Below are positions 19,133-34,428 of a stretch of 64,000 nucleotides of DNA, one piece after another. Source of the DNA: Candidatus Brocadiia bacterium (GTDB lineage: Bacteria > Planctomycetota > Brocadiia > SM23-32); assembly GCA_046538485.1 (NCBI GenBank), contig JBKHIT010000004.1, forward strand, positions 1 through 64,000, in the 5' to 3' direction. The first letter of the stretch is position 1. Each line of letters starts with the position of its first letter. A program made the translations under genes and the position numbers. The notes beneath the pieces are model-generated. The model was not told the origin of the DNA. It saw nothing but the letters and a program-made list of their open reading frames with translations, and did not search any database.

Positions 19133-19557
19133 TTCCATCCTCCAAAAAAAAGAAAATCCTGCGCGTGATGCATGGCGCCCGGCAAATTGGACGCAAATGC
19201 CTCTCCACAGAACGGAAATCATTTATGTGATTCCCGGGATTTTGGACAAAAATCCACCACTTATGTCAGGAAATCAAAACCAAAACGACTGGATTATATG
19301 GCCACTGGCCCCGGAGGGCAAAAGGAAAGCATGTCACGAGCCGGGATTCTGCAGATGATGTTAAGCGATTGTTATCAAGTTAGCGATTGGATTCCCAACC
19401 AATATCAGTCATATTTCTTCTTTTTGAATATGGGGATTCGGGGCGGAAGCGCCGATGCGGAAGAGCGCCGCTCACTGTCCACCGCGAGGTTCGGGAGGTT
19501 GCTAACCTGGCCAGACCGTGTGGTCGAAAAGACAAACGGTTTTTCCCCGACTTTTTC

Positions 19558-19585
19558 TTGACAAAAGCCACAGTTATGGTAGTAT
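19558..19585 (+). promoter_or_regulatory. Candidate sigma70 promoter for the regulator/pilin operon
   Basis: TTGACA (19558-19563), 16-nt spacer, TAGTAT (19580-19585), about 45 nt before the ATG. Confidence 0.45.
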
Positions 19586-19631
19586 TACCTTACATGGTTT
19601 GCGCATTAATTATACATCGGTAGGCTCCGCT

Positions 19632-20735
19632 ATGAAAATCAAGTATCGTTCGCTGGCCAGGGAACTGCGACGTGTAATCGATGAAGAGGAGTATGCACCT
19701 GGAGACGCCCTTCCCTCGCAGTCGAATCTTGCGGACCGTTTCGGTGTGAATCCGCGCACGGTTGCCCGGGCCCTGGATGTGTTGGAGGAGGACGAACTTA
19801 TAACCCGCAAACGTGGTAGCGGCACCTACATCTCCGATCTGCCGGATTCCCGCACCACCACCCCGCTGCTGTATATCGGGCGCACCGAAGGCCATTTCCA
19901 TAAAGACCTTTATTGTGCATTGACGGCGGAGGCGCAGCGTAGTGGACCCGGAGTCATTGCATTTTCCCCATGGCAAGAAACCGAAGAGTTGCAGGACTCG
20001 GAACACCTCCGCGCCCTGCTGGAATCATCCCAGAGAATTATCTGCGCGTCGCAGCACTGGTCAAAACTCCGTGAGATCGTTCCGAACAAATGCCACGTCG
20101 TGCTGGTCAGCGGTTTCTCTGGTTCAGTTGATACGGATCAGACCTCCGCGGGATACACAGTAGCGACCAATATCAAGCACGCCAGCCAGCTCGCGACCGA
20201 ACATCTTCTCGAACTGGGTCATCGCCGTATCGCGCTCGTCAGTGTCGGCTGGGAACCCGGGGAATCTGCGGAGGTTCGACGGATTCCTCCCGACGCGTCG
20301 GTGTATCAGGGCTACCATCTCGCCCTTCGCTCTAACGAAATCAACCAGGAGTTCCCGATGGGATGTCCGCACAGCGGCTCGGATAAAGACTTTCGTGGGG
20401 TAACCATGAAAGCTCTTGAAAAACACTTTGCCTCAATGGACGAGTTGCCCACGGCTTTTGTCTGCGAAACGGATTTTCGGGCTTCTGTTCTTTTGAACCT
20501 GATGCGATCGCGCGGGCTTGAAGCTCCGCGGGACTTCAGCGTCGTTGGTATTGGTAATACACCCTGGGCTGAAATGACCCATCCGCGTCTCACAAGCGTG
20601 AGCCTGCGGGAAGAGGTGATGTCACGAGTGGCCGTTGACCTCTGTTCTGGCGAACCTCCTTCCGGACCGGCCGTGGTCCGGATCGACCCCGAACTGGTTG
20701 AACGAAACTCCACTAAAGCGCCGACTGAAACCTGA
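19632..20735 (+). CDS. GntR-type HTH fused to a LacI-type sugar-binding domain (AraR-like regulator)
   Basis: PGDALPS...LA.RFGVN..TV.RAL..L...LI.R.RGSGTY; C-terminal [38 protein letters not shown]. Confidence 0.9.
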
Positions 20736-20758
20736 ATGTTTGCCGAAAGAATCGCAAA

Positions 20759-21721
20759 ATGATCTTATACCCCAGGAACGCTGGAGAAAAAGCGGGCTCA
20801 CCCGACGCGTTCACGCTCATTGAACTCCTCGTCGTTATCGCCATCATCGCGATCCTGGCAGCGATGCTCATGCCGGCGCTGGAACGGGCCCGTGAGGCTG
20901 CCCGACGAGCGGTCTGCTTGAACAAACAGCGTCAGATCTATCTGCAGGCCAATATGTATATCAACGATTTCGACGGCTGGTGCCCGCCGGGATCAAATGC
21001 CGCCAGCGGGTATCTCCGCGCCGATAACCACTGGTATCGGGCCCCGTACATCTTCGAGATCTGGAACGAAGAATATCTGGGGCTTGATGTCTACCCGCCC
21101 GATGGCCATGATCACGAGCGCTCCGATCAGCGTTTCCGGAAACACGAAGGGCTGATATGGTGTCCGAGTAGTAAACGCACACAGGAAGAAAACTGGATTC
21201 ACCACAACTCCTCAGTTGATCCATCCAAAGAGGCAATGCCATGGTCGACGGGCACCGACTACGCGATCGTTGGTGGCGCCGGATACCACACCAGCTCCAA
21301 AACCAGCACCGTCCCCTGTCCCGCTTTGTCCAGAAAAGCATGGCACAGCACCTCCGGCTTCCCCCGCCTTTTCTCCATGGACATCTGCAACTGGCAGGGC
21401 AATTTCAGCCAGTACCAGGTGCATCAGAAGGGCCGCTATCCGGACGGACTCAATATCATTAGTTGCAACGGCGCGGGCAAATGGCTTCCAACGGGCGAGT
21501 GTACCCTCTATGGCCCGGGTTCCTGGGGAAATCCCAACTGGCAATATATGTGCCGAACTTACAAGCTGATCCCGAAAGGTTACGAGTTCCCATACAATAT
21601 CAAGGATCATGACAATGACCTCTTGAAAGTAGCCAGAGATGGCCACGTTGCCAGCATCGGCGGGGGACTCGGCTCCGGGTGCGCGCCCCTGAGCGATTGG
21701 GGGTATATTGCTGATTGGTAA
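20759..21721 (+). CDS. Prepilin-type N-terminal cleavage/methylation protein (DUF1559-like), copy 1
   Basis: [38 protein letters not shown]-terminal H-x14-NG. Confidence 0.9.
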
Positions 21722-21918
21722 ACTTTTTCTGATTTAAGAAAGCGGCGACTTTAAAAATCGTCACATGGACGGAGCCGTATTCAGCCTTCGTTTTTTGCTC
21801 GAGAAGTGCTTTGAACGGTTTCCCGTGAAAATAGCCGTGCGTTTTGACAATCACCTGTTCAGATTCTGTATAAAATTCGGACTGGCTTTGTTCGCCGACT
21901 GGCGTCATCGTGAAAAAC

Positions 21919-21964
21919 ATAAACAGTCCCCCAGACTGATGAACCGAAAAGGAGTTATATAATG
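21919..21964 (+). repeat. Conserved 5' leader/RBS, copy 1 (second copy 23020-23065)
   Basis: ATAAACAGTCCCCCAGACTGA(T/C)GAACCGAAAAGGAGTTATATAATG, with one mismatch between the copies. Confidence 0.9.
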
Positions 21965-22876
21965 AGGCAGAGCATCGGTTATAAGAAAGTTGGCTTCACG
22001 CTGATCGAACTCCTGGTTGTGATCGCCATCATCGCGATCCTGGCCGCGATGCTGATGCCGGCGCTGGAACGGGCGCGTGATGCTGCCATGGCAGTCGCCT
22101 GCAAGAACAACCTGAAACAAATCGGACTTGGCAACATGATGTACGTAAACGATTACGGTGGTTTTCTCCCAGGCCCTCAATGCGTTGACCCCGGCAGCGG
22201 AGAAGTCGTTGATGGTGGAAGCCATTGGGACGGCGTCCGCTGGCCGCATGTGCTATCGCGTTATGGAATAAGTGGAGGCATTTTCACGTGTTCGGCAGTC
22301 GACCCTGATTCTATAGGAAGATACGACAGCATGTGCCCCGATCTTCCCGGATTTGATAATGCCCCCGAATACAATACCTATACGTGGAATGGGGCTTCTT
22401 CTGATATCTGGAACACTGCCTATGAGGGTTATTATGCGCCCGGTCAGAGCCACCTTAATCGTCCGACCGGATACGTACAATCCGAAACGGGCATGGGTGC
22501 GTTGCCGCATGAGGATGCGACCTGGGGGCCTGCCCTGAGAAAAGTTACTGCCTCCCGGTCGATGATGGTCATGGACCAGACCCAGTTTGGCGGCTGGGGT
22601 GGCAATATTGGCCATATCTACACCACCAGAATGTCTGACATGCGGGAACTGTCCACGGGTATGCCGAACTGTTGGATTAACCTCGGCGTGCCGGGTTTTA
22701 CCTGCACGGAGTGGGTGGCCTCTGATGGATCTTGGATTGATGGGAGGAAAAGCCCTCTTCACGGGCAGGGCTACAACGCCCTCTTCGGCGATGGACACGT
22801 GGACGGTATGACCGCGGGAGAAACCACCCTCCGTGAATGGGCGGCCGTCAACGGAGACCTCGTGGAAAAACGTTAA
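21962..22876 (+). CDS. Prepilin-type N-terminal cleavage/methylation protein (DUF1559-like, H-X9-DG), copy 2
   Basis: [37 protein letters not shown], terminal [14 protein letters not shown]. Confidence 0.92.
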
Positions 22877-23019
22877 GGGAGGAGCGAGCATCTGGCCGAG
22901 CTTTTCGTTCGACAAGGAAAAAGCCGCAGCTTGCTTTGTCCGTATTTAAAGCGAATTAGTGTTCGGAGGACGAACCGTGACGTGCTTGAGCTGTTGCGGC
23001 CACTGGCACCATGAAAAGG

Positions 23020-23065
23020 ATAAACAGTCCCCCAGACTGACGAACCGAAAAGGAGTTATATAATG
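23020..23065 (+). repeat. Conserved 5' leader/RBS, copy 2
   Basis: Near-identical to 21919-21964. Confidence 0.9.
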
Positions 23066-23956
23066 ACGCAAAAAATGGGGTATAAAACGGTTGGGTTCAC
23101 GCTGATCGAACTCCTGGTTGTCATCGCCATCATCGCCATCCTGGCGGCGATGCTGATGCCGGCGCTGGAACGGGCGCGGGAAGCCGCCCGCCGCGCGGTT
23201 TGCATGACCAACCAGAAGCAGATACACCTGGGCGGAACGATGTATGCCAACGACTGGAACGGGCTACTTCCTGGCGGAGGCTACGACTGGTACCGCAACC
23301 TCGTCGGCGAACGGAACCGCGGCAATGTCATCTTCTTTTTCAGCGATTACCTGTCCGTTCCCATCGTCGGCAATCCTGATCCTCAAAGTATCCAGCCGGG
23401 CAACTCCTACAGCCTCGCAACCCGAAATTGCGTCGTTTACTGCCCGAGCAATCGAGGTAACCGGCCCCGCTCCAACAAATACGCAAGTTCCGAATGGAGC
23501 CCGGACATGATGCTGCGGGGTTTTGGCACAGTGGACGGCCAGGACTGGTGGTTGGGATTCGGATATCCCTCGCTGGGCAAGATGGCTCGTTCCCGAAACG
23601 GATACAAGAAGACGTTGATTCAGGACATGATTTATCTACAGGAGTGCCCGTCTTTCCCCGATTATTACGAAAGGTACAATAACCACTGGCAGGGTGGCGA
23701 ACCAGCGGGAGGTAATGTTGCCACAGCGGACGGCGGGGTCAAATGGGTCCCCGCCAGTGAATTTGTGCCCCATAGCGATTCCAATGCTCGGGACCACCCT
23801 GCGAATTACTGGAATATCCACTTCGGTTATCATAAGGCCGCGCTCGGAAAACCGCCCCCCACTATTCGCGTCCGTGTCCCGCCAAGTGGAAGCTATTCGC
23901 ATACCTCAAATATTGGGATTATGGGCTACAGCTCAAGTAATGTTCTTCCCCCCTGA
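23063..23956 (+). CDS. Prepilin-type N-terminal cleavage/methylation protein (DUF1559-like), copy 3
   Basis: [42 protein letters not shown]-x14-DG ([17 protein letters not shown]). Confidence 0.9.
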
Positions 23957-24001
23957 TCAACCCACGACGGCAGATCAGAACATAATTTTCGGGAGTGCAC
24001 A

Positions 24002-27000
24002 ATGAAACGTTTATTTGTTGTCTTCGTATCTGTAACATTTGTTTTGTTTGCCCGTCTGCCGGGTGCAGCTTCTGCAGAAAGAAAACCCTCGATCATTGAG
24101 AGTGCCGCCGCTCAAACAGCCGTCCTTGATCCTGCCAGCTGGGGCAAGACGTTACCGGATGAGCGATACTTCGATGCCATACGTCCGATGCTGATGCGGT
24201 TCCCCGGACTGGCGGAAAAAGCTTACAAAAAACTCCAGAAGGGATACGAGATTGAAAAAGCGGAGCTCGTCCTCACCTGGGAAAAGCAGGAGAAAGCAAA
24301 ACCACAGCGTGGTCGCCGCGGCTGGGGATCGGAAAAAGCATACAATAAAAATCCCGGACGCTGGCACGCCGTCGCCTATCCCCTGCTCCGATCATGGAGC
24401 CTGAAACCCCAAGGACCCACCGCCGACGCCTACGTCAACGAGCTGGCGTACTGGGCCCGCGGGGTGGCCCGGGGCGATGGGGATGACCGGGCACGTAAGA
24501 GGTTTGGACCGGCCCCACTCCATTCAAAGAACAAAGTGGCGCGCCTGGACGTGACGGCCACCCTGAAATCGGATATGTGGGGCGATAACGTCGGCGAACG
24601 GCTGCGTTCTGTGGAACAGCGAGGTTTTCAGGTCCTCAAAGACGAACTGTATGATCTCAAATATGGGAACCAGGGAGGTCATTGGTTCAGCGTATATGGC
24701 TGGAAACCGTGCACGGGTTATATGCGCATCTGGGTGGAGGAGCCGCGTCTGGTCCTGACCCTGCGTAAAGGCAACGCCCCCGACTGGCAACTGCCCGATC
24801 CCATCGACTACACGCGCCGCGCAAAGAAACTACAAAAAGATCCCCGCGGTGAGTCGCACATGGCACCGCCGGAGAACTGGAAAGAACTGGCCAGTCGATT
24901 CACCGAGAAGCCCGCTGATATGCCCGCCTGGCAGTGGAAACGCATCCAGCAGCTTCACCGGCTGGGAGGATGGAATCTTGGTGGCCGGCTCAACGCCGCC
25001 CCCCTCCTGTCGCTGGAGAAGGAAACCTACCAGAACGGCTTGAAAAACGTGCTGGCCGCACCACCGCGGTACTGGTACGGGCATCTGACGTCGAGCTGGG
25101 CGCTGTTGCCCAACGCGTTCGGTGAACTTTTGCCGGATCTGGCCCACGACCATCTGAAACTCTACTGGACGGCCTGGCTCCATCCCGAGACCAAATGGAC
25201 GGAAAACCCCCGCAAGCGGTCCTATTTTCGCCAGTATAGCTGGAGCCTGGGAACGCAGAACTTCACCTACAACGCCACCGCTGGATGCTATCTGGGCGGA
25301 CAGGTGATCGATTCGGAGTATGCCCTTCGCGATGCTCGATACGGCGTGGAAAACCTGATGCTTCGCGGGTTCGGGTTCTACAACGGCGCCAACCAGGAGG
25401 TCGGCGATACGTATTACCAGGCGCTGTCGAACGCAGGTGCCAAGATGGTGGCCGACTACGCGGAAGATGAGCTGGGGAGCCTGATGGCGCAGTGCACCAG
25501 CGACAAACTCACAGAGCAGCTCGTCTCGATGTATCATCCCGGCCTGCGCCGCATGACGCATCCGATGGGACGTGGCGAGATGAAATACCAGTGCGCTTAC
25601 CAGGATGGACCCTACTTCGCCGTGCATACGTTGTCCCGCTCCGGTGCACTCACAAATTTGCAGGCCGGTTATAAGGCGAAATCTTATAGACACGTCAAAC
25701 GTTACAATGTCCCCATTTTTGGAAAAGAAGGTCCGCCGGCACGCATGGCTCTGCTGGCCCCGTGGGCCGAGCAGTACTGGGCCAACGTCGTGGACGGCAA
25801 AGAGTTACCGTGGCAGGTGACCGCCCGCGACTGGGATTTCCACGTGGACAGGGGCCCCTCCCACTGGCACGTGAATTATCTGGCTGAGAACTACAGCCTG
25901 GCCTCCCGGAGCGACGGAGGAGTGACCCCCGTCACCGCCCAGTGGCGGCGTCAGGCGGAGAAAGTCGAGCAAATGCAGCAGGTGTCCACGCTGCAGTTGA
26001 GTTTCGGCACGAATGGCCGCATGTATCAGATGATGAATCCATATGGAATTCTGCAGGACAAAAATCGTCTTATGGCGATCAAAGCCCTGTCCCCCAAAAA
26101 GAAGATGAAAGCACCACCCAATCCCGATTACGGCGGCGGGTGGCGCACGAAGGAAAAAGGACGGGGTGGAACCAGCTACAACGCCATCCATACGACGGCC
26201 GCCATCATTGTGTTCGGCGACGTGTCGAAGCGGGAAGTCTGGGTCAATGACCGGAAAATCAACAAACTTTCCGGCAATGCATCGCCCCGAAAAGGACACG
26301 ATTACCAATGGGAACGCCATCTCCGCACGACAGGAGAAAACTCCGTCTACGTGGATGAAAGAAGCGTAATCACCATCAAAGACGGGGTGACGTATGTCGC
26401 ACTGATCCCGTTTGCCCTCAACCCGATGGAATGCGATCAGGAAGTAGAGATCGCCTACGAATGGCCGACTCTGTTTGTGCACTCTTTTCTGTATCGCAGC
26501 CAGGACCCCCTGGATCTGAACGAGTGGTATGAGCAGGAAGGGGCGGATCGGGCAACTTCGGGATTCGTGCTCGAAATGGCGGACCAGTCCGATTACGACT
26601 CGTTCGAGGATTTTCGCAAACATATGCTCGAGGCGAACCTGTCCGATAAGTGGGACGCCAAAGCGCAGACCAACCACGTCGAGTACCGAAGCGGCGACGA
26701 TACCCTGGCGATGGGATTCTATCCCTGGTATCAGGTCAGGAAAAACGCGGACCTGCTCGAGCATCCGACCTACCTCCGGGTCAACGGCGAGGAGGCATAT
26801 CTTAAACCCGGCATCATTCGCGAGTCACCCTGGAGCATACTGGGACGCACGGGCCGACTGGAGAAAAACGGTGCCGTTCTGGAAAGTGAAGCCGAATCCC
26901 GCACCTATCTTCTGTGCGATCCGAAAAGCGGCATCGCCAGTGCATACAATCCCGTCCCCGATCCCAAATTCATGCGGCTGATGATGCCCGACGGGCAGAT

Positions 27001-27907
27001 GGTCAGCGCGAATGGACGTCTTGGACTGACCCGCATAACCGTGGATCCGCGGAACGAACGAGTTAAAGTGCGTTACGCACTGAAAGATAAGCAGAAAGGG
27101 CACCCCGACATAGCATCCGCGCTGATGCTGTCAGGCTTTGACGATAAACCGGATGTCACTCTGAACGGTGCGACCGTGGGTAATCTGAGAACCTTCACCG
27201 TGGATGTTGCCACCGCATATGGACTGCCGCTGCGTGACAATGCGGATATGGCGAACCTGCCCGACGAAGTGGCCCGCGCCAATGAACTCTGGAAACAGGT
27301 CGAAGAATCGAACGCGCGAAGCACCTATTTTCGCGATTGGCACGTGGTGGGGCCGTTTGACGCCGGATCGTATGCGCAGGAGAACTTCCAGCTCGAAAAG
27401 TGCGGGCCGGAGGAAGGGTATGATCCGGACGCCACCTATGAGGGCGTGAGACCGGGTGACAGGGGCACGAAACCGACCCGGGTGCGCTGGAAACCGGCCC
27501 TGGAAGACGGCGAAGACGCGCTGTCGGCGAAGCCACTCGACCTGATGAAACTGTTCCGGCCGAACAAAGGCGTGATGGCGTATGCCACCGCGACGATCGT
27601 GAGTGACCGGGACCGGCGCGTGAAAGTGCTGGCCGGGAGCGACGAGCGGCTGGGAGTCTGGGTCAACGGTGAAAGAGTTATCTATAACCGGGGATGGCGC
27701 ATGTGCTACCGCGACCAAAACCGCGCATTTGCAAATCTAAAGGAAGGCGAGAACAAGGTGTTGATCAAACTCAGCCACGGATATGAGTCATGGCGTCTGT
27801 ATTTTCGCCTGGCCGATGAAAATGGGCTGCCAATTGACGATGGGGTGGTTTACCGTGGAGCGCACGGGGATGTGCCGGTGGGGGGACGTGGTAAACACAC
27901 GGACTGA
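24002..27907 (+). CDS. Large secreted hypothetical protein (1301 aa), possibly carbohydrate-active; paralogue of 28934-33112
   Basis: Signal peptide (..GAASA|E), Trp/Tyr-rich core, C-terminal beta-sandwich-like module (WHVVGPF...AYA..I.S...GSDE..VWVNG...L.EGEN.VL.K). Confidence 0.8.
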   Translation: MKRLFVVFVSVTFVLFARLPGAASAERKPSIIESAAAQTAVLDPASWGKTLPDERYFDAIRPMLMRFPGLAEKAYKKLQKGYEIEKAELVLTWEKQEKAKPQRGRRGWGSEKAYNKNPGRWHAVAYPLLRSWSLKPQGPTADAYVNELAYWARGVARGDGDDRARKRFGPAPLHSKNKVARLDVTATLKSDMWGDNVGERLRSVEQRGFQVLKDELYDLKYGNQGGHWFSVYGWKPCTGYMRIWVEEPRLVLTLRKGNAPDWQLPDPIDYTRRAKKLQKDPRGESHMAPPENWKELASRFTEKPADMPAWQWKRIQQLHRLGGWNLGGRLNAAPLLSLEKETYQNGLKNVLAAPPRYWYGHLTSSWALLPNAFGELLPDLAHDHLKLYWTAWLHPETKWTENPRKRSYFRQYSWSLGTQNFTYNATAGCYLGGQVIDSEYALRDARYGVENLMLRGFGFYNGANQEVGDTYYQALSNAGAKMVADYAEDELGSLMAQCTSDKLTEQLVSMYHPGLRRMTHPMGRGEMKYQCAYQDGPYFAVHTLSRSGALTNLQAGYKAKSYRHVKRYNVPIFGKEGPPARMALLAPWAEQYWANVVDGKELPWQVTARDWDFHVDRGPSHWHVNYLAENYSLASRSDGGVTPVTAQWRRQAEKVEQMQQVSTLQLSFGTNGRMYQMMNPYGILQDKNRLMAIKALSPKKKMKAPPNPDYGGGWRTKEKGRGGTSYNAIHTTAAIIVFGDVSKREVWVNDRKINKLSGNASPRKGHDYQWERHLRTTGENSVYVDERSVITIKDGVTYVALIPFALNPMECDQEVEIAYEWPTLFVHSFLYRSQDPLDLNEWYEQEGADRATSGFVLEMADQSDYDSFEDFRKHMLEANLSDKWDAKAQTNHVEYRSGDDTLAMGFYPWYQVRKNADLLEHPTYLRVNGEEAYLKPGIIRESPWSILGRTGRLEKNGAVLESEAESRTYLLCDPKSGIASAYNPVPDPKFMRLMMPDGQMVSANGRLGLTRITVDPRNERVKVRYALKDKQKGHPDIASALMLSGFDDKPDVTLNGATVGNLRTFTVDVATAYGLPLRDNADMANLPDEVARANELWKQVEESNARSTYFRDWHVVGPFDAGSYAQENFQLEKCGPEEGYDPDATYEGVRPGDRGTKPTRVRWKPALEDGEDALSAKPLDLMKLFRPNKGVMAYATATIVSDRDRRVKVLAGSDERLGVWVNGERVIYNRGWRMCYRDQNRAFANLKEGENKVLIKLSHGYESWRLYFRLADENGLPIDDGVVYRGAHGDVPVGGRGKHTD

Positions 27908-28057
27908 CACGGACGGACACGGAGTGCATGGACGAGCACGGAGCACATGGACGAGCACAAAGAACACGGACAGACACGGACCAGCACGGACAAACGGCCC
28001 CGTGTCCAGAAGCCAGGCCGTTTCCTCCGTCCGTGTCCGTCCGTGTCTGTCCGTGTG
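27897..28057. repeat. 10-bp tandem repeat (ACACGGACNN) array with an inverted arm, forming a long hairpin
   Basis: ACACGGACTG ACACGGACGG ACACGGAGTG ... ACACGGACAG ACACGGACCA GCACGGACAA (27897-27993), then CCGTCCGTGT CCGTCCGTGT CTGTCCGTGT (28027-28056). Confidence 0.9.
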
Positions 28058-28083
28058 AAACCAACGCCCTTAACACAACCCAA

Positions 28084-28770
28084 TCACTCTTCATCACGCT
28101 CCTTCTTTCGAATCCGATACATCCGTTCTGTGAAGCCGCCGTTTTCTTTGAAAGCCCGAGCCTGAGCCGCCAATTGACGCTGCAAGAAGTAGCAGCACAG
28201 ATTCAGCAGAGAAAGCGCACCGTTAGCGGCTATGGCTGAGTATGGCACGGACCCACACGGACTTTCACGGACGGGACGGCCTGTGGAAGATGCGGCACCC
28301 TGGCATGCCGTGCCCCCGCCGTCGTCCGTGTCCGTCCGTGCCGGTCCGTGTGCCTTTCCGTGCATCTTATCATGTTCATCCCGCACCCAATCCTGCATCT
28401 CTTCAAGACTCGAAACCCGTCGTTCCTTGAACCGCTCAAGTGCGGGATGATGGGGCTCCCAGCAGGGCAAATTTCTCTGCCGGAGATAATCCTCATAATC
28501 GCAACGCAGTTCCTCCAGACTTGCCCGGGCGATATTGGTCAGTTTCAACTCAATTTTGGCCGACGTGCCCGACGCTTTGCTACCTTCGGCGATGTTCTGA
28601 ACGCCGGATCGTGCAGCCTGGACCATTTGATCATGGGTACGACTCCGTTCGTCAATGTAAAGATTGCAGAACCGAACGGTGGTATCGTAAATCAACCGTG
28701 CGATCCGAAAACTTTTCAGATTTCTAAAACCACCATGTTCGGGGATCAGAGATTCTCCCTGTCCGCTCAT
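28084..28770 (-). CDS. Four-helix-bundle protein (23S rRNA IVS / bAvd-like fold) with four-helix-bundle suffix domain
   Basis: GGFRNLKSF..A..IYD.T..FC, RTHDQMVQAARSGVQNIAEGS, LTNIARASLEEL..DYEDYLRQR, C-terminal AAN..L.L...C.Y.L.RQ......F...GGFTERMYR.R; GGAG RBS. Confidence 0.88.
   Translation of the reverse strand: MSGQGESLIPEHGGFRNLKSFRIARLIYDTTVRFCNLYIDERSRTHDQMVQAARSGVQNIAEGSKASGTSAKIELKLTNIARASLEELRCDYEDYLRQRNLPCWEPHHPALERFKERRVSSLEEMQDWVRDEHDKMHGKAHGPARTDTDDGGGTACQGAASSTGRPVRESPCGSVPYSAIAANGALSLLNLCCYFLQRQLAAQARAFKENGGFTERMYRIRKKERDEE
28245..28363. repeat. Second CACGGAC decamer inverted-repeat element, in frame inside the four-helix-bundle gene
   Basis: GCACGGACCC ACACGGACTT TCACGGACGG GACGG (28245-28279) versus CCGTC GTCCGTGTCC GTCCGTGCCG GTCCGTGTGC (28319-28353). 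Confidence 0.85.
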
Positions 28771-28933
28771 GAAAAACTCCTGTCACTATTGAATTACTGA
28801 AGGTGCTCGCTCCCCTGCGAGACACCAGGCCATCTTTGTCGTCCGCTTTTGGAAATTTTCCCCTGTTTGATAGGTTACAATCGTTGGCGCTTTTTCGCAA
28901 CGTTTTCTCTCGCACACAACCCGGAGAAAAAGA

Positions 28934-31900
28934 ATGCATACCCGAAAAAACCGCTGTTTTTTTGTGATCATCTGTCTTGCAATTGCCGTGACTGCCGCTG
29001 ATGCCGGTGAAACGACTGGAGATCAGGACCGTTTGCTTCTGAAGGACGCCGAGACCGCTCTCATCAGCGGTTTTCGCGAGCAGTGGAACGAGCCGCAACC
29101 GGATAAACTGCTGTTCGACGGTGTGCATCGGAATTTGCTTGTCCGTTTTCCGAAAGCTGCCGAAAAAATTGCCGGCAAACTTAAGCAGGGCTACCGCATC
29201 AAAAAAGCCGAACTCCTGCTACCGTTTGATGGCACCGACTTCGGTAAAGGTCTGTACGAGCTCCGCACCAGTTTTGGAGGAGCGAAATTATACAAACAGC
29301 GCAAACCGCGCTGGCACGCGGTGGGATGGGCATTGAGAAAACCGTGGACGGCGGATTCCGAACTCGGCCCGACATTCAACGCATATATAGACGGCACGGG
29401 ATACTGGGAAAAATTCGGAGCTCAAAGCCCCCAAAACGACCGATTTGAAGAGCCGTTTGGGCCCGTCGAAGTGTCCTATTTCCAGGCCTGGCACAAACCG
29501 GACCCGGTGCTGGATAATAGCGAACTGGAAGAGACATCGCCTCTGAAGCGGTCTGCCGACAATATAGAAAAATCAGGCGTTACACCCGAACAACCCTTTG
29601 AACCTGATTCAGAAGCGAACGATCCTGAGGTCGAGCTCGACGAAAAAACCATCGATCCGGCGCGTATGGACGTCACAGCATCTCTAACCAATCCATCGTT
29701 CGGAAGATCGCTGGCGAAGCGTCTCCGACGTTTGAGCGATTGCGGATTCCTGCTCGAAAAGTGGGAAACCTACGACTGGCGCTATCGTGTGGCCGGTCAG
29801 GGAGCCTACGAATGGCAGGTTGCGGTGGGCGGCGGAGCTCTTCACATTCAAAAACCGTCCCTGGAAGTCACTTTCACTCAAAACGAAAACCCCGTCAAAA
29901 TCGATGTCCCTCCCCCGGTGGATATCCCCTCTCTGGCGAAAACTCTGAAAAAAGAAAACCGCGGCGGGCAGCCAACTGCTTCTATCCCGGGTGATGGTAA
30001 GCTTGACAACCTGATCGCCGCGCATCAAATCCAGCGGGCTGACTGGATGCCAGAGTGGCAGTGGAAGCGCGTTCAGGAATTAGACGACCTCGGCGGCGGC
30101 TACCGTATGCCGTCTTCCCGCAAAAAATATCTCCAGTGGATCGACGGGATGCTCAATGATCCGCCGCGCTACTGGAACGGATGGGATGTTCATGATCGCC
30201 TTTTGACCTATTTTCTTTACCGGAATGCACTCCCCCGGCCTGTTCGCGAACACTATTTCCACGACTACTGGAAAGCCTGGCTGATGTGCTGGATGGCCAC
30301 CGACAAACTGGAACACCCCCAGGCCGTCGAACTGCGCCACGATGGGGAGAACAAATATTACAACCGAACCGGCGATTGGCGCGGGAACGCCAGTTTTTAC
30401 CGTGATGGTTATTGCTACAACATGGGCACCATGAATTTCAATCACACCTCAGCTATGGGCGCCCTCCTGGCAGGCGGTTTTACAGATTGCCAGCGCGCCG
30501 TGCGCGACGGTCGTCATGGTCTTGAACAATGGCCCCTGCGCACCTGGTGCTGGTACGACGGATCCACCCAGGAATCCATCGACCACTACTATTTCGCCAT
30601 CACCCTGAGCGGACAGAAAATGTTCGCTGATTTCGGCCCGACCCATCTCGACCGGCTGATGGGAAAAAGCATCCTGGCAAAATCCGTCGGGGAGATCACA
30701 TCGGCATATCACCCCGCCCTGCGACACTTTATTGCATCCAGCGGACGCACGAACATGCAATACGTCCTTCTCACCCAGGATGGTCTGCAACACATTGTCC
30801 ATACCCTATCAAGAAAAGGATCTCTGCACGATGTGAACAACGACAATCTGCCCGATACTCTTCGCACTATCGGCCGTGATGTGCCCCCCGGTCGTGTGGC
30901 CCAGCAGGCCGCCACAGGCGCCTGGGCGCCCGCATGGGTAAGTAATATGGTCGACCAGAAACCAATCCCCTTTTCAATGACGTGCGCGTATAAAGAATGG
31001 GGCCATCACGCACGCAACCCGCTGTGGCGCCGGACCTACCTGGGCAAAAATTATGGGCTTGGCAGCACGGACCTCCACTGGGGAGTCGTGCAGGTACTCG
31101 GTCAGTGGCGGCGCGAGCCGGCGAAACCCGTAACGAAACTGCAGGAGATCGGGATTTTCACGATCCGCTGCGGCGTCAACGAAACCCGGCTGGTCAACAG
31201 CCATTCGGGTTGGATGCCCTCGGAAGGGAATCTCGCGGTGTTTCAGGAGAAGAACAAAATGATCGCGGTCGGAAGCCCCTACAGGATGGACCCGGACAAA
31301 ATGGGGGCCTATATCAACACAAAAACGGAAAAACCGAAGCAAGAGATCCGGTCTGGCGAGCCAGCAACAAAAAGTGCTGGGCCAGCCCTTAAGAGTCTCC
31401 AAACAACGGTCGGGTTTTTCAATTATCAGAAACCCCGGACGTGGCAAATTTACGTGAATGGTGAGCCCGTTTCGGAGCTGCCATTCACGGCTGAACACGG
31501 GCAGCGGATAACCATCCGGGATGGCGCCAGTTATATCGGTTTGATCCCGTTGCCGGGCGGACCTCCGGCCAGCACGAACAAAGTTGTTATCAAAGCCGGC
31601 AATGAACAGACCGGATATCCCAAGAAAATCAGAATCACCCCCGCCCTCGTCATTGACTCGTACAGCTATTTTGTATCGGGCGATGCAAAAAAAACCAACG
31701 CGGATAAGCTGGACGCCCTGATCAACGAAGACGTCAAAACAGAGAACGACAAAGGTCCCAATATGAATGCGCTGGATCATTCTTACAGCGGGTTCGTGGT
31801 GGAGATGGGCGACGAAACGGAATATGACTCTTTCGAAGATTTCCAACGACACTTCGCCGAAAGCGAGTTGAAAACCCGGTGGCAAAAAGAAACAAAGACC

Positions 31901-33112
31901 GTCCATGTCAGCTGGAAAAGCGGTGCCACGAGGATGGAGGCGGGCGTCAAAACCGACTACAAAAAAGGCGGCGCATCGCCGAAATGCTGGGCATACCGCC
32001 GGGTGAACGAAAAATGGCCGTACCTGGCCGAGGATATGGATCGCGATACGACACTGACTCAACAGGGACGGTGTGCGCGGCTGGAAAAACAGGGAGCCGT
32101 ATTGGTCACTGACCCCGAGAGAATGGCTTATTTGCAGGCAGAGCCCGTAAGCGGCACGTATTGCGGCTGGAATCCGCTTCCCGATATGACAATGTACCGA
32201 CTGGTCACACCCGAAGGAATACGCCTTGAAACCGACGGACGCACAGGACTGACGCGGGTGATTGTGCAACCGGGAAACAGACGCATTGAACTCGATCATG
32301 CTTTGAAGGCCGGGCAGAAGGATCGAGGGGACCTTGCAACGACCCTTCTGGTGTTTGGTATGGACAAACAGCCGACCGTTTTTCGCAATGGACGCCGGAT
32401 TGCCCCGACACCTGCGGCCAAACCACCTCAAGTGCTGAAGAAGAAAATTGGTGAGAAACACGCCTGGGTGATCCCCCTTCGTGAGGAAGTGACGCGCCAG
32501 GATCTGGGAGGAGTGGCTGAGCGCTACCAGCGCGTGACCGAGATACTCGATATTATCGCACGAGGCGAAAAACCTGATATAGTCGATACAGTCGTCCAGG
32601 ATTGGTTGGTAATCGGCCCGTTTTCCAACAAAAATAAGAAGGGATTTTCCAAAGCCTATCCCCCCGAGAAGCAAGTCGACCTCGCAGCAACCTATCAGGG
32701 CGTCGGGGGAAAGACCGTTGCCTGGAAACGAACCCAAACTCCAGATAAACCACCGCTCGGTCAAGGCCCGATCAACCTGAAAAAGCTCTTCGACCCCGCT
32801 CAAAACGTCTGCGCTTACGCCTTTACGGAAATCGAATCCGACCGTGCTCGTGACGCAACCCTGTACGTGGGCAGCGACGATACCATCACCGTATGGATAA
32901 ACGGAGACCAGGTGCTGAGCCGAGAGGTGTATCGCGGCGCGGCGCTCGATCAGGACCAAACGTCCATCCACCTGCAGGAAGGCACCAATCGTGTGCTGGT
33001 AAAAATCTGCCAGACCTGGGGTGGATGGGAGTTTTATTTCCGCATCGGCGACGTTTACGGTCTGCCCATTGAGGAAGGCCTAAAATTCGGCGTGAGCTTG
33101 CCCAACAAATGA
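28934..33112 (+). CDS. Large secreted hypothetical protein (1392 aa), possibly carbohydrate-active; paralogue of 24002-27907
   Basis: Signal peptide (..TAADA|G). Blocks shared with the first copy: RFP..AEK...L..GY.I.KAEL, RWHAV, MP.WQWKR.Q.L, PPRYW.G, GT.NF, QE..D.YY, YHP.LR, YDSFEDF, W.V.GPF, GSD[DE]. Confidence 0.8.
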   Translation: MHTRKNRCFFVIICLAIAVTAADAGETTGDQDRLLLKDAETALISGFREQWNEPQPDKLLFDGVHRNLLVRFPKAAEKIAGKLKQGYRIKKAELLLPFDGTDFGKGLYELRTSFGGAKLYKQRKPRWHAVGWALRKPWTADSELGPTFNAYIDGTGYWEKFGAQSPQNDRFEEPFGPVEVSYFQAWHKPDPVLDNSELEETSPLKRSADNIEKSGVTPEQPFEPDSEANDPEVELDEKTIDPARMDVTASLTNPSFGRSLAKRLRRLSDCGFLLEKWETYDWRYRVAGQGAYEWQVAVGGGALHIQKPSLEVTFTQNENPVKIDVPPPVDIPSLAKTLKKENRGGQPTASIPGDGKLDNLIAAHQIQRADWMPEWQWKRVQELDDLGGGYRMPSSRKKYLQWIDGMLNDPPRYWNGWDVHDRLLTYFLYRNALPRPVREHYFHDYWKAWLMCWMATDKLEHPQAVELRHDGENKYYNRTGDWRGNASFYRDGYCYNMGTMNFNHTSAMGALLAGGFTDCQRAVRDGRHGLEQWPLRTWCWYDGSTQESIDHYYFAITLSGQKMFADFGPTHLDRLMGKSILAKSVGEITSAYHPALRHFIASSGRTNMQYVLLTQDGLQHIVHTLSRKGSLHDVNNDNLPDTLRTIGRDVPPGRVAQQAATGAWAPAWVSNMVDQKPIPFSMTCAYKEWGHHARNPLWRRTYLGKNYGLGSTDLHWGVVQVLGQWRREPAKPVTKLQEIGIFTIRCGVNETRLVNSHSGWMPSEGNLAVFQEKNKMIAVGSPYRMDPDKMGAYINTKTEKPKQEIRSGEPATKSAGPALKSLQTTVGFFNYQKPRTWQIYVNGEPVSELPFTAEHGQRITIRDGASYIGLIPLPGGPPASTNKVVIKAGNEQTGYPKKIRITPALVIDSYSYFVSGDAKKTNADKLDALINEDVKTENDKGPNMNALDHSYSGFVVEMGDETEYDSFEDFQRHFAESELKTRWQKETKTVHVSWKSGATRMEAGVKTDYKKGGASPKCWAYRRVNEKWPYLAEDMDRDTTLTQQGRCARLEKQGAVLVTDPERMAYLQAEPVSGTYCGWNPLPDMTMYRLVTPEGIRLETDGRTGLTRVIVQPGNRRIELDHALKAGQKDRGDLATTLLVFGMDKQPTVFRNGRRIAPTPAAKPPQVLKKKIGEKHAWVIPLREEVTRQDLGGVAERYQRVTEILDIIARGEKPDIVDTVVQDWLVIGPFSNKNKKGFSKAYPPEKQVDLAATYQGVGGKTVAWKRTQTPDKPPLGQGPINLKKLFDPAQNVCAYAFTEIESDRARDATLYVGSDDTITVWINGDQVLSREVYRGAALDQDQTSIHLQEGTNRVLVKICQTWGGWEFYFRIGDVYGLPIEEGLKFGVSLPNK

Positions 33113-33273
33113 TAACCGCGCCTAAACAGGTTTCTGAGCGGGAACAGGTTTTTCACAAAGCTTAGAATCTGGTTGCGTTGGCGTTCTAAAATGTGCATTT
33201 TACACTGTAACGTGTATACTGGCCCTCGATGACCTTCGGTCGCCTGCTATTTTATTTTTCTCCGGGCTTTCTG

Positions 33274-34428
33274 ATGGACGACAAATCTTGCCTGATTAAA
33301 AACGGTGACGTTTTTATTGACGGCCATTTTGTCTCTCAAAATATAATTATTGAAAATGGCAAAATCGTACGGCTTTTTGCACCGGGGACTGCGCCGAAAA
33401 AAGATTTCGTCGTTATTGACGCGTCCGGGAAGTTTGTGCTCCCGGGGCTTGTCGATCTCCACGTTCATGGAGCGGGAGGAAGCGATTTGCTGGAGGACCG
33501 TTCTGATGCTCTCCCCGATGTCGCGCGCCATCTTGCTCGTTTCGGGACGACGGCTTTTCTGGCCACAACTCTGATAATGCATGAAGACAAAGGCCAACCT
33601 CATATCCGTCATATCGTGGAATCACCCACGAAACACGAAAAGGCGGCGCGGGTTCTTGGCATTCACATCGAAGGACCGTTCGTCAACCCTGATAAACGGG
33701 GTATGATTCAGCCAATCTCCATTCGCGAGCCGTCACCGGCTGCTCTGGGATCCATTCTCAAGCTTTGTCAGGGCAAGCTCAAGATGATGACGATTGCTCC
33801 GGAACTCGATGGTGTCATTCCCTTGTTGCGAGACCTTGCATCCCAGGGCGTCATAGCGGCACTGGGGCATACGGACGCCACGTATGCCGAGGTTCGGACT
33901 GGGGTCGAGAATGGGATAACGCACGTTACGCACGTTGCCAACGCCATGCGTGGGCTTCATCATCGCGAACCGGGAGCTCTGGGAGCGGCCATCATGGACG
34001 AACGTCTATCGGTGCAAATTATCGGCGACTGCGTGCATATCCATCCACAAATATTCGAGTTTATCGTTCGCTCAAAAGCCCCGGGGATGTATGCTTTGAT
34101 CACAGACGGAATTAGGGCTACAGGTCTCGCGCCGGGAGATTACGAGCATGGAGTTATATCATTTGTGGTAGAAGATGGCGTTGCGAGGGCCAAAGACGGG
34201 ACACTCGTGGGAACGGCACTTACTCAATTACAGATGATCCAGCGTCTCAGAGAACAAACGCAGATTCCCTTTGCTGAACTGGTTCGCATGGCGACCATTT
34301 ATCCAGCGCAGATTCTCAATATTGCCGATCAAAAAGGAAGCATTGGGGAAGGCAAAGACGCTGATATTGTCATTTGCAACCAGGACCTTGAACCGGTGCG
34401 GGTTTTTGTGGAAGGACAGTCTGTCTAA
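33274..34428 (+). CDS. nagA: N-acetylglucosamine-6-phosphate deacetylase
   Basis: PGLVDLHVHG, GIHIEGPF, TIAPE, LGHTDAT, THVANAM, HHREPG, LITD. Start is 33274 or 33229. Confidence 0.9.
   Translation: MDDKSCLIKNGDVFIDGHFVSQNIIIENGKIVRLFAPGTAPKKDFVVIDASGKFVLPGLVDLHVHGAGGSDLLEDRSDALPDVARHLARFGTTAFLATTLIMHEDKGQPHIRHIVESPTKHEKAARVLGIHIEGPFVNPDKRGMIQPISIREPSPAALGSILKLCQGKLKMMTIAPELDGVIPLLRDLASQGVIAALGHTDATYAEVRTGVENGITHVTHVANAMRGLHHREPGALGAAIMDERLSVQIIGDCVHIHPQIFEFIVRSKAPGMYALITDGIRATGLAPGDYEHGVISFVVEDGVARAKDGTLVGTALTQLQMIQRLREQTQIPFAELVRMATIYPAQILNIADQKGSIGEGKDADIVICNQDLEPVRVFVEGQSV

Follow-up and report, generated by a model that had tools for sequence, protein, structure and literature searches.

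Four-helix-bundle proteins of the PF05635/TIGR02436 type are very widespread; to our knowledge, they have been without a function outside retroelements since they were discovered in the 1990s inside intervening sequences (IVS) of ribosomal RNA (rRNA). The IVS of Leptospira were reportedly treated by Ralph and McClelland in 1993. This report concerns a gene of the same superfamily, located at 28084-28770 on the minus strand of a 64,000-nucleotide (nt) stretch of DNA from a Candidatus Brocadiia bacterium (GenBank assembly GCA_046538485.1, contig JBKHIT010000004.1, positions 1 to 64,000), together with the arrays of a short repeat that lie inside and downstream of it. The whole stretch is called the window here, and positions given without a contig name refer to it. 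An earlier description made from the letters of the window alone (the sequence-only reading) proposed that the gene and its repeat hairpins form one unit. We favour a more specific reading, held tentatively and at somewhat less than an even chance: the gene and its arrays would be a co-inherited IVS-like module, the arrays would be binding sites of the module's own protein, and the module may be mobile.

The helix-45 IVS of Coxiella burnetii shows how such genes are built into rRNA. As described in PMC4990558, its 28-base-pair (bp) terminal stem is cut by ribonuclease III (RNase III) and the open reading frame (ORF) for the S23p protein lies in the loop; tandem GACAGAT heptamers, variable in number between strains, are found just upstream of this ORF. 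The Coxiella protein is believed not to be made, and IVS have long been suspected to be selfish or mobile elements. Avd, the accessory protein of diversity-generating retroelements, belongs to the same fold superfamily; it reportedly acts together with nucleic acid and a partner enzyme.

Two other groups of systems pair a gene with short repeats. In the REP/REPIN-RAYT systems (repetitive extragenic palindromes, their paired forms and the associated tyrosine transposases), a Y1 HUH gene is flanked by its own hairpin-forming repeats; the repeats differ by gene clade, and gene-less copies are dispersed. In iterons, the heptads of the omega repressor and ParR-parC, rows of 7-11-bp units lie close to the gene for their binding protein; the units are spaced by about one helical turn and are bound cooperatively, and the binders are ribbon-helix-helix or winged-helix proteins. 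We know of no precedent in the second group for an array inside the binder's own ORF.

The locus studied here comprises the following features:

27896..27963, not strand-specific: outer left array of two to three good and about three worn decamers; it shares sequence with the last codons of giant gene 1, the giant gene upstream, and can pair with 28030-28057

27905..27907, plus strand: TGA stop codon of giant gene 1, formed by an array spacer (GGAC-TGA-CACGGAC)

27964..28057, not strand-specific: inner part of the downstream hairpin, with three CACGGAC units, a loop that contains the AAACGGCC/GGCCGTTT pairing, and three GTCCGTG units; 28 nt, 89% complementary

28084..28770, minus strand: gene for the four-helix bundle and suffix domain; ATG at 28768-28770, stop codon at 28084-28086, AGGAG 8 nt 5' of the start

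28236..28362, minus strand: internal hairpin; the sense strand reads CACGGAA plus three CACGGAC, a loop and three GTCCGTG

28771..28933, not strand-specific: divergent intergenic region between the start of the gene and giant gene 2; it holds a small hairpin at 28802-28826, no repeat array and no decamer units

The sequence-only reading had described a ACACGGACNN array and an inverted arm 3' of the gene, folding together into a long stem; this structure is confirmed at 27896-28057. CACGGAC units separated by 3-nt spacers run from 27898 and face a converging GTCCGTG arm at 28029-28055. The two 28-nt arms of the stem, 27896-27923 and 28030-28057, show 96% complementarity. The RNA fold of 27890-28065 on the minus strand has an energy of -92.9 kcal/mol, compared with -64.9 +/- 4.1 kcal/mol for shuffled sequences (z -6.86; none of 200 shuffles folds as well). 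The inner pairing of AAACGGCC (27992-27999) with GGCCGTTT (28017-28024) is present as described, and the array does begin within the last codons of giant gene 1 (ORF 24002-27907) and supplies its TGA.

A second CACGGAC hairpin, at 28236-28362, is part of the ORF itself. It keeps the reading frame, contains no stop codon and codes for amino acids (aa) 139 to 176 approximately. On the plus strand, CACGGAC is found at 28246, 28256 and 28266 and GTCCGTG at 28324, 28334 and 28344; the minus-strand RNA has a folding energy of -73.4 kcal/mol (z -5.61), which none of 200 shuffles equals. The sequence-only reading had the downstream hairpin right, missed this internal one and over-read the small hairpin 5' of the gene: that hairpin exists, at -14.8 kcal/mol, and is not beyond chance (z -1.28; 23 of 200 shuffles fold as well). 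The pattern CACGGACNNNCACGGAC, with at most one mismatch allowed, has ten matches in the window where 0.03 are expected; all ten are within 27898-28350, in the two hairpins. No sigma-70-like promoter or terminator match, and no U-tract terminator, was found by consensus scan of 27700-29100. Rfam finds no rRNA in 27000-29500; its one match is a sub-threshold look-alike of a plant microRNA, of a kind typical of long hairpins.

The likeness to IVS of 23S rRNA is that a four-helix-bundle gene of the same superfamily is combined with long inverted-repeat stems and with short tandem repeats beside the ORF. The differences are several. The locus is not in rRNA; the gene is flanked by two giant protein genes, to which it is antisense. 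Each of the two hairpins, the downstream and the internal one, is local, and no stem encloses the ORF. Two additional helices and the TIGR04258 suffix distinguish the protein, and the repeat unit is a decamer specific to the protein clade. The family here is strongly conserved, in contrast to the Coxiella protein, which is believed not to be made. We class the locus as working like an IVS-type cassette and not as an IVS; this assignment follows from its position outside rRNA and from the absence of an enclosing stem.

The enclosed arrangement does occur elsewhere in this genome. A classical TIGR02436 gene at C137:3170-3660 (112.5 bits) lies between inverted arrays of the heptamer AGTTCT[AG], with three heptamers about 30 nt upstream of its ATG and thirteen directly after its stop codon. 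This paralogue is a full IVS-like build outside rRNA. Relatives in which xGGAC arrays lie upstream of the gene and GTCCx arrays inside or downstream of it share the feature more loosely.

Repeat arrays accompany the family generally. At least 583 relatives, 43-71% identical and from many phyla, are present in the genome_contigs collection. The homologue set comprised 20 loci from 30 relatives, 80 loci from genome_contigs and the four of this genome. An array was defined as the same 6-mer occurring at least three times at a spacing of 7-12 within the gene and 300 nt on either side; the 139 control windows were of equal size and at least 700 nt away. Arrays are present at 63 of 105 homologous genes (60%) and in 15 of the 139 controls (11%), a roughly six-fold difference. 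Two classes of unit prevail: CACGGAC with a period of 10, in the closest homologues, and G/A-TGGAC with a period of 9, in the next clade. Within a locus, the upstream, internal and downstream zones tend to agree; a common NNGGAC word is found in 29 of 39 zone pairs, compared with 28% between loci.

The type of unit follows the protein tree. The tree was built from 94 complete proteins after removal of the repeat-bearing middle columns, and its rows were labelled ACGGAC (28), TGGAC (47) or other (19). Ten label changes are required; shuffled labels require 39.6 on average, and none of 200 shuffles is as low as ten. All 28 ACGGAC rows fall in a single clade of 38 rows with a Shimodaira-Hasegawa-like approximate likelihood ratio (SH-aLRT) support of 99. 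The hosts in this clade are Deltaproteobacteria, Acidobacteria, WOR-3, Lentisphaerae, Planctomycetes and Verrucomicrobia; since host phyla are mixed within it, the unit follows the gene and not the host. Positions 108, 110, 111, 114 and 191 of the protein differ between the two main unit classes, and at positions 111, 114 and 191 the TGGAC states are also found in a TGGAC subclade that branches within the ACGGAC clade. The array frequency, the inheritance by clade and the agreement of units within a locus together support the earlier claim that gene and hairpins are one unit. The sequence-only reading had also said what would speak against it, namely homologues that lack such repeats and a gene stably syntenic across relatives. 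The first is not what is found, given the 63 array-bearing genes; with respect to synteny, a strain about 95% identical keeps the arrangement.

Four loci of this genome score above the TIGR04258 cut-off, and each of these suffix-type paralogues has a different unit:

This locus: unit CACGGAC, period 10; internal and downstream

Paralogue C44:74603-75154: unit GTGGAC/CTGGAC, period 9; upstream, internal and downstream

Paralogue C80:25789-26277: unit AAGGGAC, period 9; upstream hairpin and an inverted copy after the stop codon

Paralogue on contig C26: TAGGTC-like nonamer; upstream

The arrays are conserved as nucleotide sequence. All three reading frames are used for the 10-nt unit; successive copies encode HG, RT or TD, and the opposite arm encodes SV, PC or VR. 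The CACGGAC core is held at the same position of the gene in at least six phyla while the encoded peptide differs. Conservation is thus at the nucleotide level, and no peptide repeat can explain the unit. Core density is 13-16 per kilobase (kb) and orientation in the loop-coding part of the coding sequence; elsewhere it is 0.2-1.8 per kb (first 330 nt) or 0-4.4 per kb (last 150 nt). One clade member, locus L008, has twenty flanking units and no internal array, which indicates that the protein does not need the internal array.

The orientation of the core is also maintained. Each of the 50 two-armed hairpins (38 internal, six upstream and six downstream) has xGGAC in its 5' arm. This order holds on either strand, so the polarity of the unit is fixed relative to the hairpin tip. 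Among one-armed upstream arrays, 22 read xGGAC in the sense direction and two read its complement. Where arms pair, complementarity extends to only 120 of 307 spacer positions. Many stems thus consist of short helices of 6-7 bp with bubbles in between, and it is the oriented core that is kept.

These properties bear on the possibility that the hairpins are purely structural, read by no cognate protein and acting, as in rRNA IVS, in RNase III cutting or in transcription stop or insulation so that the cassette is trimmed from host transcripts or isolated from them. At this locus, the downstream hairpin would separate the converging giant gene 1 and bundle gene as a two-way terminator or a processing site. 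The downstream stem does lie exactly between the two convergent stop codons, and its 28 bp at 96% complementarity make it very stable; stems of this size in IVS are RNase III substrates (PMC4990558). A hairpin is the same on both strands, which fits the absence of a sense-strand folding bias (see below), and the unrelated cargo gene GxxExxY is similarly packaged in this genome. A structural role leaves unexplained why spacers drift but the core word persists from phylum to phylum in a protein clade, why one-armed upstream arrays have a fixed orientation, and why four paralogues carry four units in one cell; moreover, there is no U-tract terminator. We consider it rather unlikely.

Arrays could also arise as neutral by-products of replication slippage and fold-back copying in tolerant loop and intergenic DNA. 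Contigs of four DNA runs were compared over 26000-31000. In the approximately 95% identical strain (run X2), the outer left array at 27908-27963 has, among the differences listed, twelve substitutions and two single-base insertions or deletions, that is 14 differences in 56 nt; copy number and spacers vary, and L008 has no internal array, all of which is in line with a neutral origin. In the same comparison, 27964-28122 shows no difference among those listed except a 5-nt insertion after 28071, so that the inner hairpin is without a listed difference. Neutral copying does not account for this, nor for a single 7-nt core held with fixed polarity at one gene position in at least six phyla while the peptide frame changes, nor for the excess of arrays at family genes over controls. 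It is highly improbable.

The protein encoded by ORF 28084-28770 has 228 aa. Its C-terminal part (aa 179-225) matches TIGR04258, the four helix bundle suffix domain (4helix_suffix), with 67.2 bits against a cut-off of 40, over profile positions 2-48 of 49. TIGR02436 matches aa 19-90 with 32.6 bits, above its cut-off of 24; this match covers only positions 4-70 of the 109 in the profile. PF05635 (23S_rRNA_IVP) also scores 32.6 bits, just below its gathering score of 33.8. By score the gene is a direct member of TIGR04258, and it exceeds the TIGR02436 cut-off over part of that profile; both are annotation families with no function attached. In Pfam and NCBIfam, four-helix-bundle families alone match the protein, and these searches detected no catalytic domain.

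The AlphaFold model, for which 17 sequences were aligned, has a predicted local distance difference test score (pLDDT) of 83.5. It predicts helices at aa 19-38, 44-66, 71-98, 109-117, 122-138, 177-210 and 213-227. The stretch encoded by the internal hairpin, aa 139 to 176 approximately, is disordered in the model, with low confidence (pLDDT about 50); helix 4 of the bundle is parted from helices 1-3 by two extra helices and this repeat-coded loop. The best Foldseek matches are the S23p-family entries 2gsc and 2rld (chains A-E), through the three N-terminal helices. The N-terminal 85 aa or so superpose on 2gsc_B with a root-mean-square deviation of 1.6 A and 29% identity; the Foldseek probability is 1.00 but the E-value is weak, at 0.02. 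No PDB match to the 228-aa protein was found by sequence profile. Across 17 sequences drawn from different families, 44 columns of the alignment do not vary, and the suffix domain is rich in arginine and lysine. A Xanthomonas S23p-family protein is described as a homopentameric toroid (PMC4990558); by analogy, the 228-aa protein is probably ring-shaped; its tail is basic.

Membership of the PF05635/TIGR02436 superfamily is what connects the gene to Avd, and the gene could in principle be the Avd accessory of a diversity-generating retroelement, with the repeats as template or target parts. The sequence-only reading had noted that no reverse transcriptase, transposase or integrase is nearby, and none is present in the ORFs called between 14.7 and 43 kb. 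Neighbours across the family were surveyed for 72 of 143 neighbour ORFs, at 40 of the 80 genome_contigs loci; no reverse transcriptase is among them. The repeats are short tandem units and do not form a template/variable repeat pair. The absence of a reverse transcriptase from the ORFs called between 14.7 and 43 kb refutes the Avd explanation for this locus, and we give it practically no weight.

Gene-less arrays are found in the genome in very different numbers. For CACGGAC, an exact-pattern search of the genome finds two gene-less arrays, both intergenic (C81:50712-50738 and C127:91281-91307). AAGGGAC clusters are found at 62 places, a count that includes the flanking arrays of the C80 gene itself. 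At least twelve of these clusters belong to a dispersed repeat, conserved over about 300 nt and with flanks in common; two copies of this repeat gave no match in Rfam. Examples of AAGGGAC clusters are at C13:52524, C19:149, C40:1009, C67:199554 and C126:537. A 31-codon remnant at C112:18740-18815 has the N-terminal HGGYR motif fused directly to the suffix domain (23.2 bits, below the cut-off) and GGAC-type units upstream; this mini-gene looks like an internal-deletion derivative.

A similar packaging is seen around an unrelated gene. A GxxExxY gene (TIGR04256, 151.7 bits) lies on C3:5992-7265, between hsdS and hsdR, amid five tandem hairpins of a CACGAAG decamer; four of the five hairpins contain no gene. 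Rfam returns only sub-threshold noise for these hairpins, of the microRNA look-alike kind. Further CACGAAG arrays are at C26:82510, C43:4352 and C95:3902, and CACAGAG arrays stand beside those on C43 and C95.

Such dispersal is also what would be expected if the arrays were non-autonomous repeats similar to REP or to miniature inverted-repeat transposable elements (MITE), moved in trans by, for example, a Y1 HUH transposase or the GxxExxY nuclease, with the bundle gene as cargo or landing site. The 62 places with AAGGGAC, the five tandem CACGAAG hairpins on C3, the GxxExxY parallel, the deletion-derivative mini-gene and the gain or loss of a family gene in Geotalea (described below) are in line with this. 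There are nine Y1_Tnp matches in the genome, all of them on contigs other than the one studied here, which counts on both sides: an enzyme may be available, and its gene does not accompany the locus. Mobilization in trans is further opposed by the scarcity of gene-less CACGGAC arrays, by the fact that the unit type tracks the bundle-protein clade across host phyla and not the host, by the rarity of transposase neighbours (one DDE transposase at the 40 surveyed loci) and by the lack of target duplication or terminal repeats at the Geotalea insertion. This explanation seems to us unlikely, and slightly less plausible than a structural role.

The locus resembles REP/REPIN-RAYT in that a gene is paired with its own hairpin repeats, the units are specific to clades and gene-less copies exist. 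It differs in having no HUH or Y1 transposase domain in the gene, in having periodic arrays of 9-10-nt units instead of single palindromes, and in carrying one hairpin in frame inside the gene; in terms of dispersed gene-less copies, the two CACGGAC arrays and the numerous AAGGGAC clusters give different pictures. With iterons, omega-repressor heptads and ParR-parC the locus shares rows of units about one helical turn apart, direct and converging, near the gene of a candidate binder. Unlike those systems, it has a four-helix bundle and no plasmid or partition context. Of the marks of an insertion sequence or MITE, a precise empty site was not found for this locus, and neither target-site duplication nor terminal repeats were visible at the Geotalea site, where one species has 871 nt and another 73 nt.

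No paper on repeat arrays with TIGR04258, TIGR02436 or GxxExxY genes outside rRNA was found among open-access papers and bioRxiv. PMC10910872 names the four-helix-bundle family in a figure legend only. The mention of GxxExxY in the myRT preprint is unrelated.

The sequence-only reading further held that the unit spreads by an undescribed route. This has indirect support from the diverse contexts of the family, from the location of the closest homologue and from Geotalea; no empty site and no ends of an element were found. The family's neighbours are diverse at the 40 surveyed loci. Restriction-modification genes (HsdS, HsdR, HsdM, ResIII) adjoin the family at 11 of the 40, usually co-directional and closely spaced; they do not do so at this locus. 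Both neighbours are co-directional with the gene at 36 of 63 loci, and the antisense placement seen here occurs at nine of 63. The closest homologue is in genome G005, where no relative of the C-terminal third of the giant gene was found.

The Geotalea site lies between an ABC-type gene and a selB-like gene. In one species it is 871 nt long and holds a suffix-type gene; in a sister species with flanks 79-81% identical it is 73 nt long, and a third species has an unrelated 3.4-kb insert at the same spot. At the 871-nt insert, which appears to hold the tail of a foreign gene, neither a target duplication nor terminal repeats were visible; the intergenic site may be an insertion hot spot. The family is gained and lost between sister species, without defined transposition.

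A number of results weigh against the proposed module. By the strict array definition, 42 of the 105 homologous genes have no array. No empty allele of the locus was found in the comparison of strains and relatives that the sequence-only reading had called for. Related rows share labels by descent, and clustering on the tree is therefore evidence of co-inheritance and not of co-evolution. Independent switches of unit type number one on starred (supported) branches and three on all branches, too few for a test of co-variation between residues and repeats; recombination of the middle segment may explain the class-differing residues equally well. Sense RNA folds better than antisense in 16 of 38 internal hairpins (Wilcoxon p 0.29), which is no bias, and the sense strand has the smaller number of G-U pairs (59 of 1119, compared with 127 of 1201 on the antisense strand). 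A role at the level of messenger RNA is not favoured when there is no sense-strand bias; the target of the protein could possibly be the array as DNA or as either transcript. At this locus there is no upstream array, so promoter autoregulation is not evident. Finally, the presence of the GxxExxY gene in very similar decamer hairpins fits a packaging that is independent of cargo at least as well as it fits self-recognition.

The co-inherited, self-recognizing module remains the reading we prefer. The sequence-only reading had also proposed that the protein binds its cognate repeat, which we regard as a reasonable conjecture, and that it modulates the host operon, which no result here supports. 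The arrays would act as cis-acting nucleic-acid elements: rows of 6-7-nt cores about one helical turn apart, on converging arms. The module's protein would recognize the cores of its own arrays, and such self-recognition would serve autoregulation or insulation of the cassette, and possibly its spread. Self-recognition is proposed on the basis of the clade specificity across hosts, the agreement of units within loci and the four units in one cell; it is proposed also because cores rather than stems are conserved, the polarity is fixed and the protein is strongly conserved. The binding as such, the nature of the target (DNA or RNA), the oligomeric state and any mechanism of mobility are inferences.

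A wider generalization is conceivable and in our judgement doubtful. S23p/Avd-like bundle proteins outside retroelements would be sequence-specific readers of periodic 7-10-nt arrays and would make up, with these arrays, a widespread and undescribed class of miniature cassettes that recognize themselves. A ring of the protein would dock on converging DNA or RNA cores, including the copy inside the gene, and in this way control, protect or propagate the cassette; rRNA IVS and the hairpin cassettes of GxxExxY genes would then be variants of this arrangement.

The locus is situated in contig C97 of a 5.19-Mb (megabase) assembly of 143 contigs that is 88% complete. Among the ORFs called in 19518-34428, the bundle gene is the sole minus-strand gene, in agreement with the plus-strand run of about 15 kb that had been described. 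The two flanking genes are paralogous, as claimed, with 29% identity over their full length (E 9e-170). These giant ORFs, 24002-27907 (1301 aa) and 28934-33112 (1392 aa), have no Pfam match. Three prepilin-like DUF1559/N_methyl genes are located 5' of them (20759-21721, 21962-22876 and 23063-23956), and more paralogues of the C-terminal third of the giant gene are found on contigs C2, C143, C127, C107, C67 and C20.

No full-length orthologue of the giant gene is present among the 30 relatives, where the best match has 35% identity over part of the query; a scan of metagenome_contigs with the C-terminal third of the giant gene found no relative. A contig from another study, about 95% identical, keeps gene 1, the hairpin, the bundle gene and gene 2 in this order. 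Among the runs registered as RNA, none contains this stretch. A low-depth joint from 27991 to 28332 (side 20, 28 foreign letters between) is in the repeats and was discounted as an empty allele.

For a protein family of this kind, a repeat that travels with the gene, is specific to a clade, is consistent within a locus and is conserved as nucleotides within the ORF is a concrete candidate ligand. The special features of this locus are the in-frame decamer hairpin and the presence of four differently 'addressed' paralogues in one genome; four paralogues with four units in one cell are a natural control, and the function of the protein becomes directly testable. A protein 'linker' that is stop-free and disordered can turn out to be a nucleic-acid element, and a neighbouring gene can receive its stop codon from such an array. 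The packaging of a gene with repeats is apparently recurrent and undescribed. If the module is mobile, it would represent a very small kind of mobile DNA without a recognizable recombinase.

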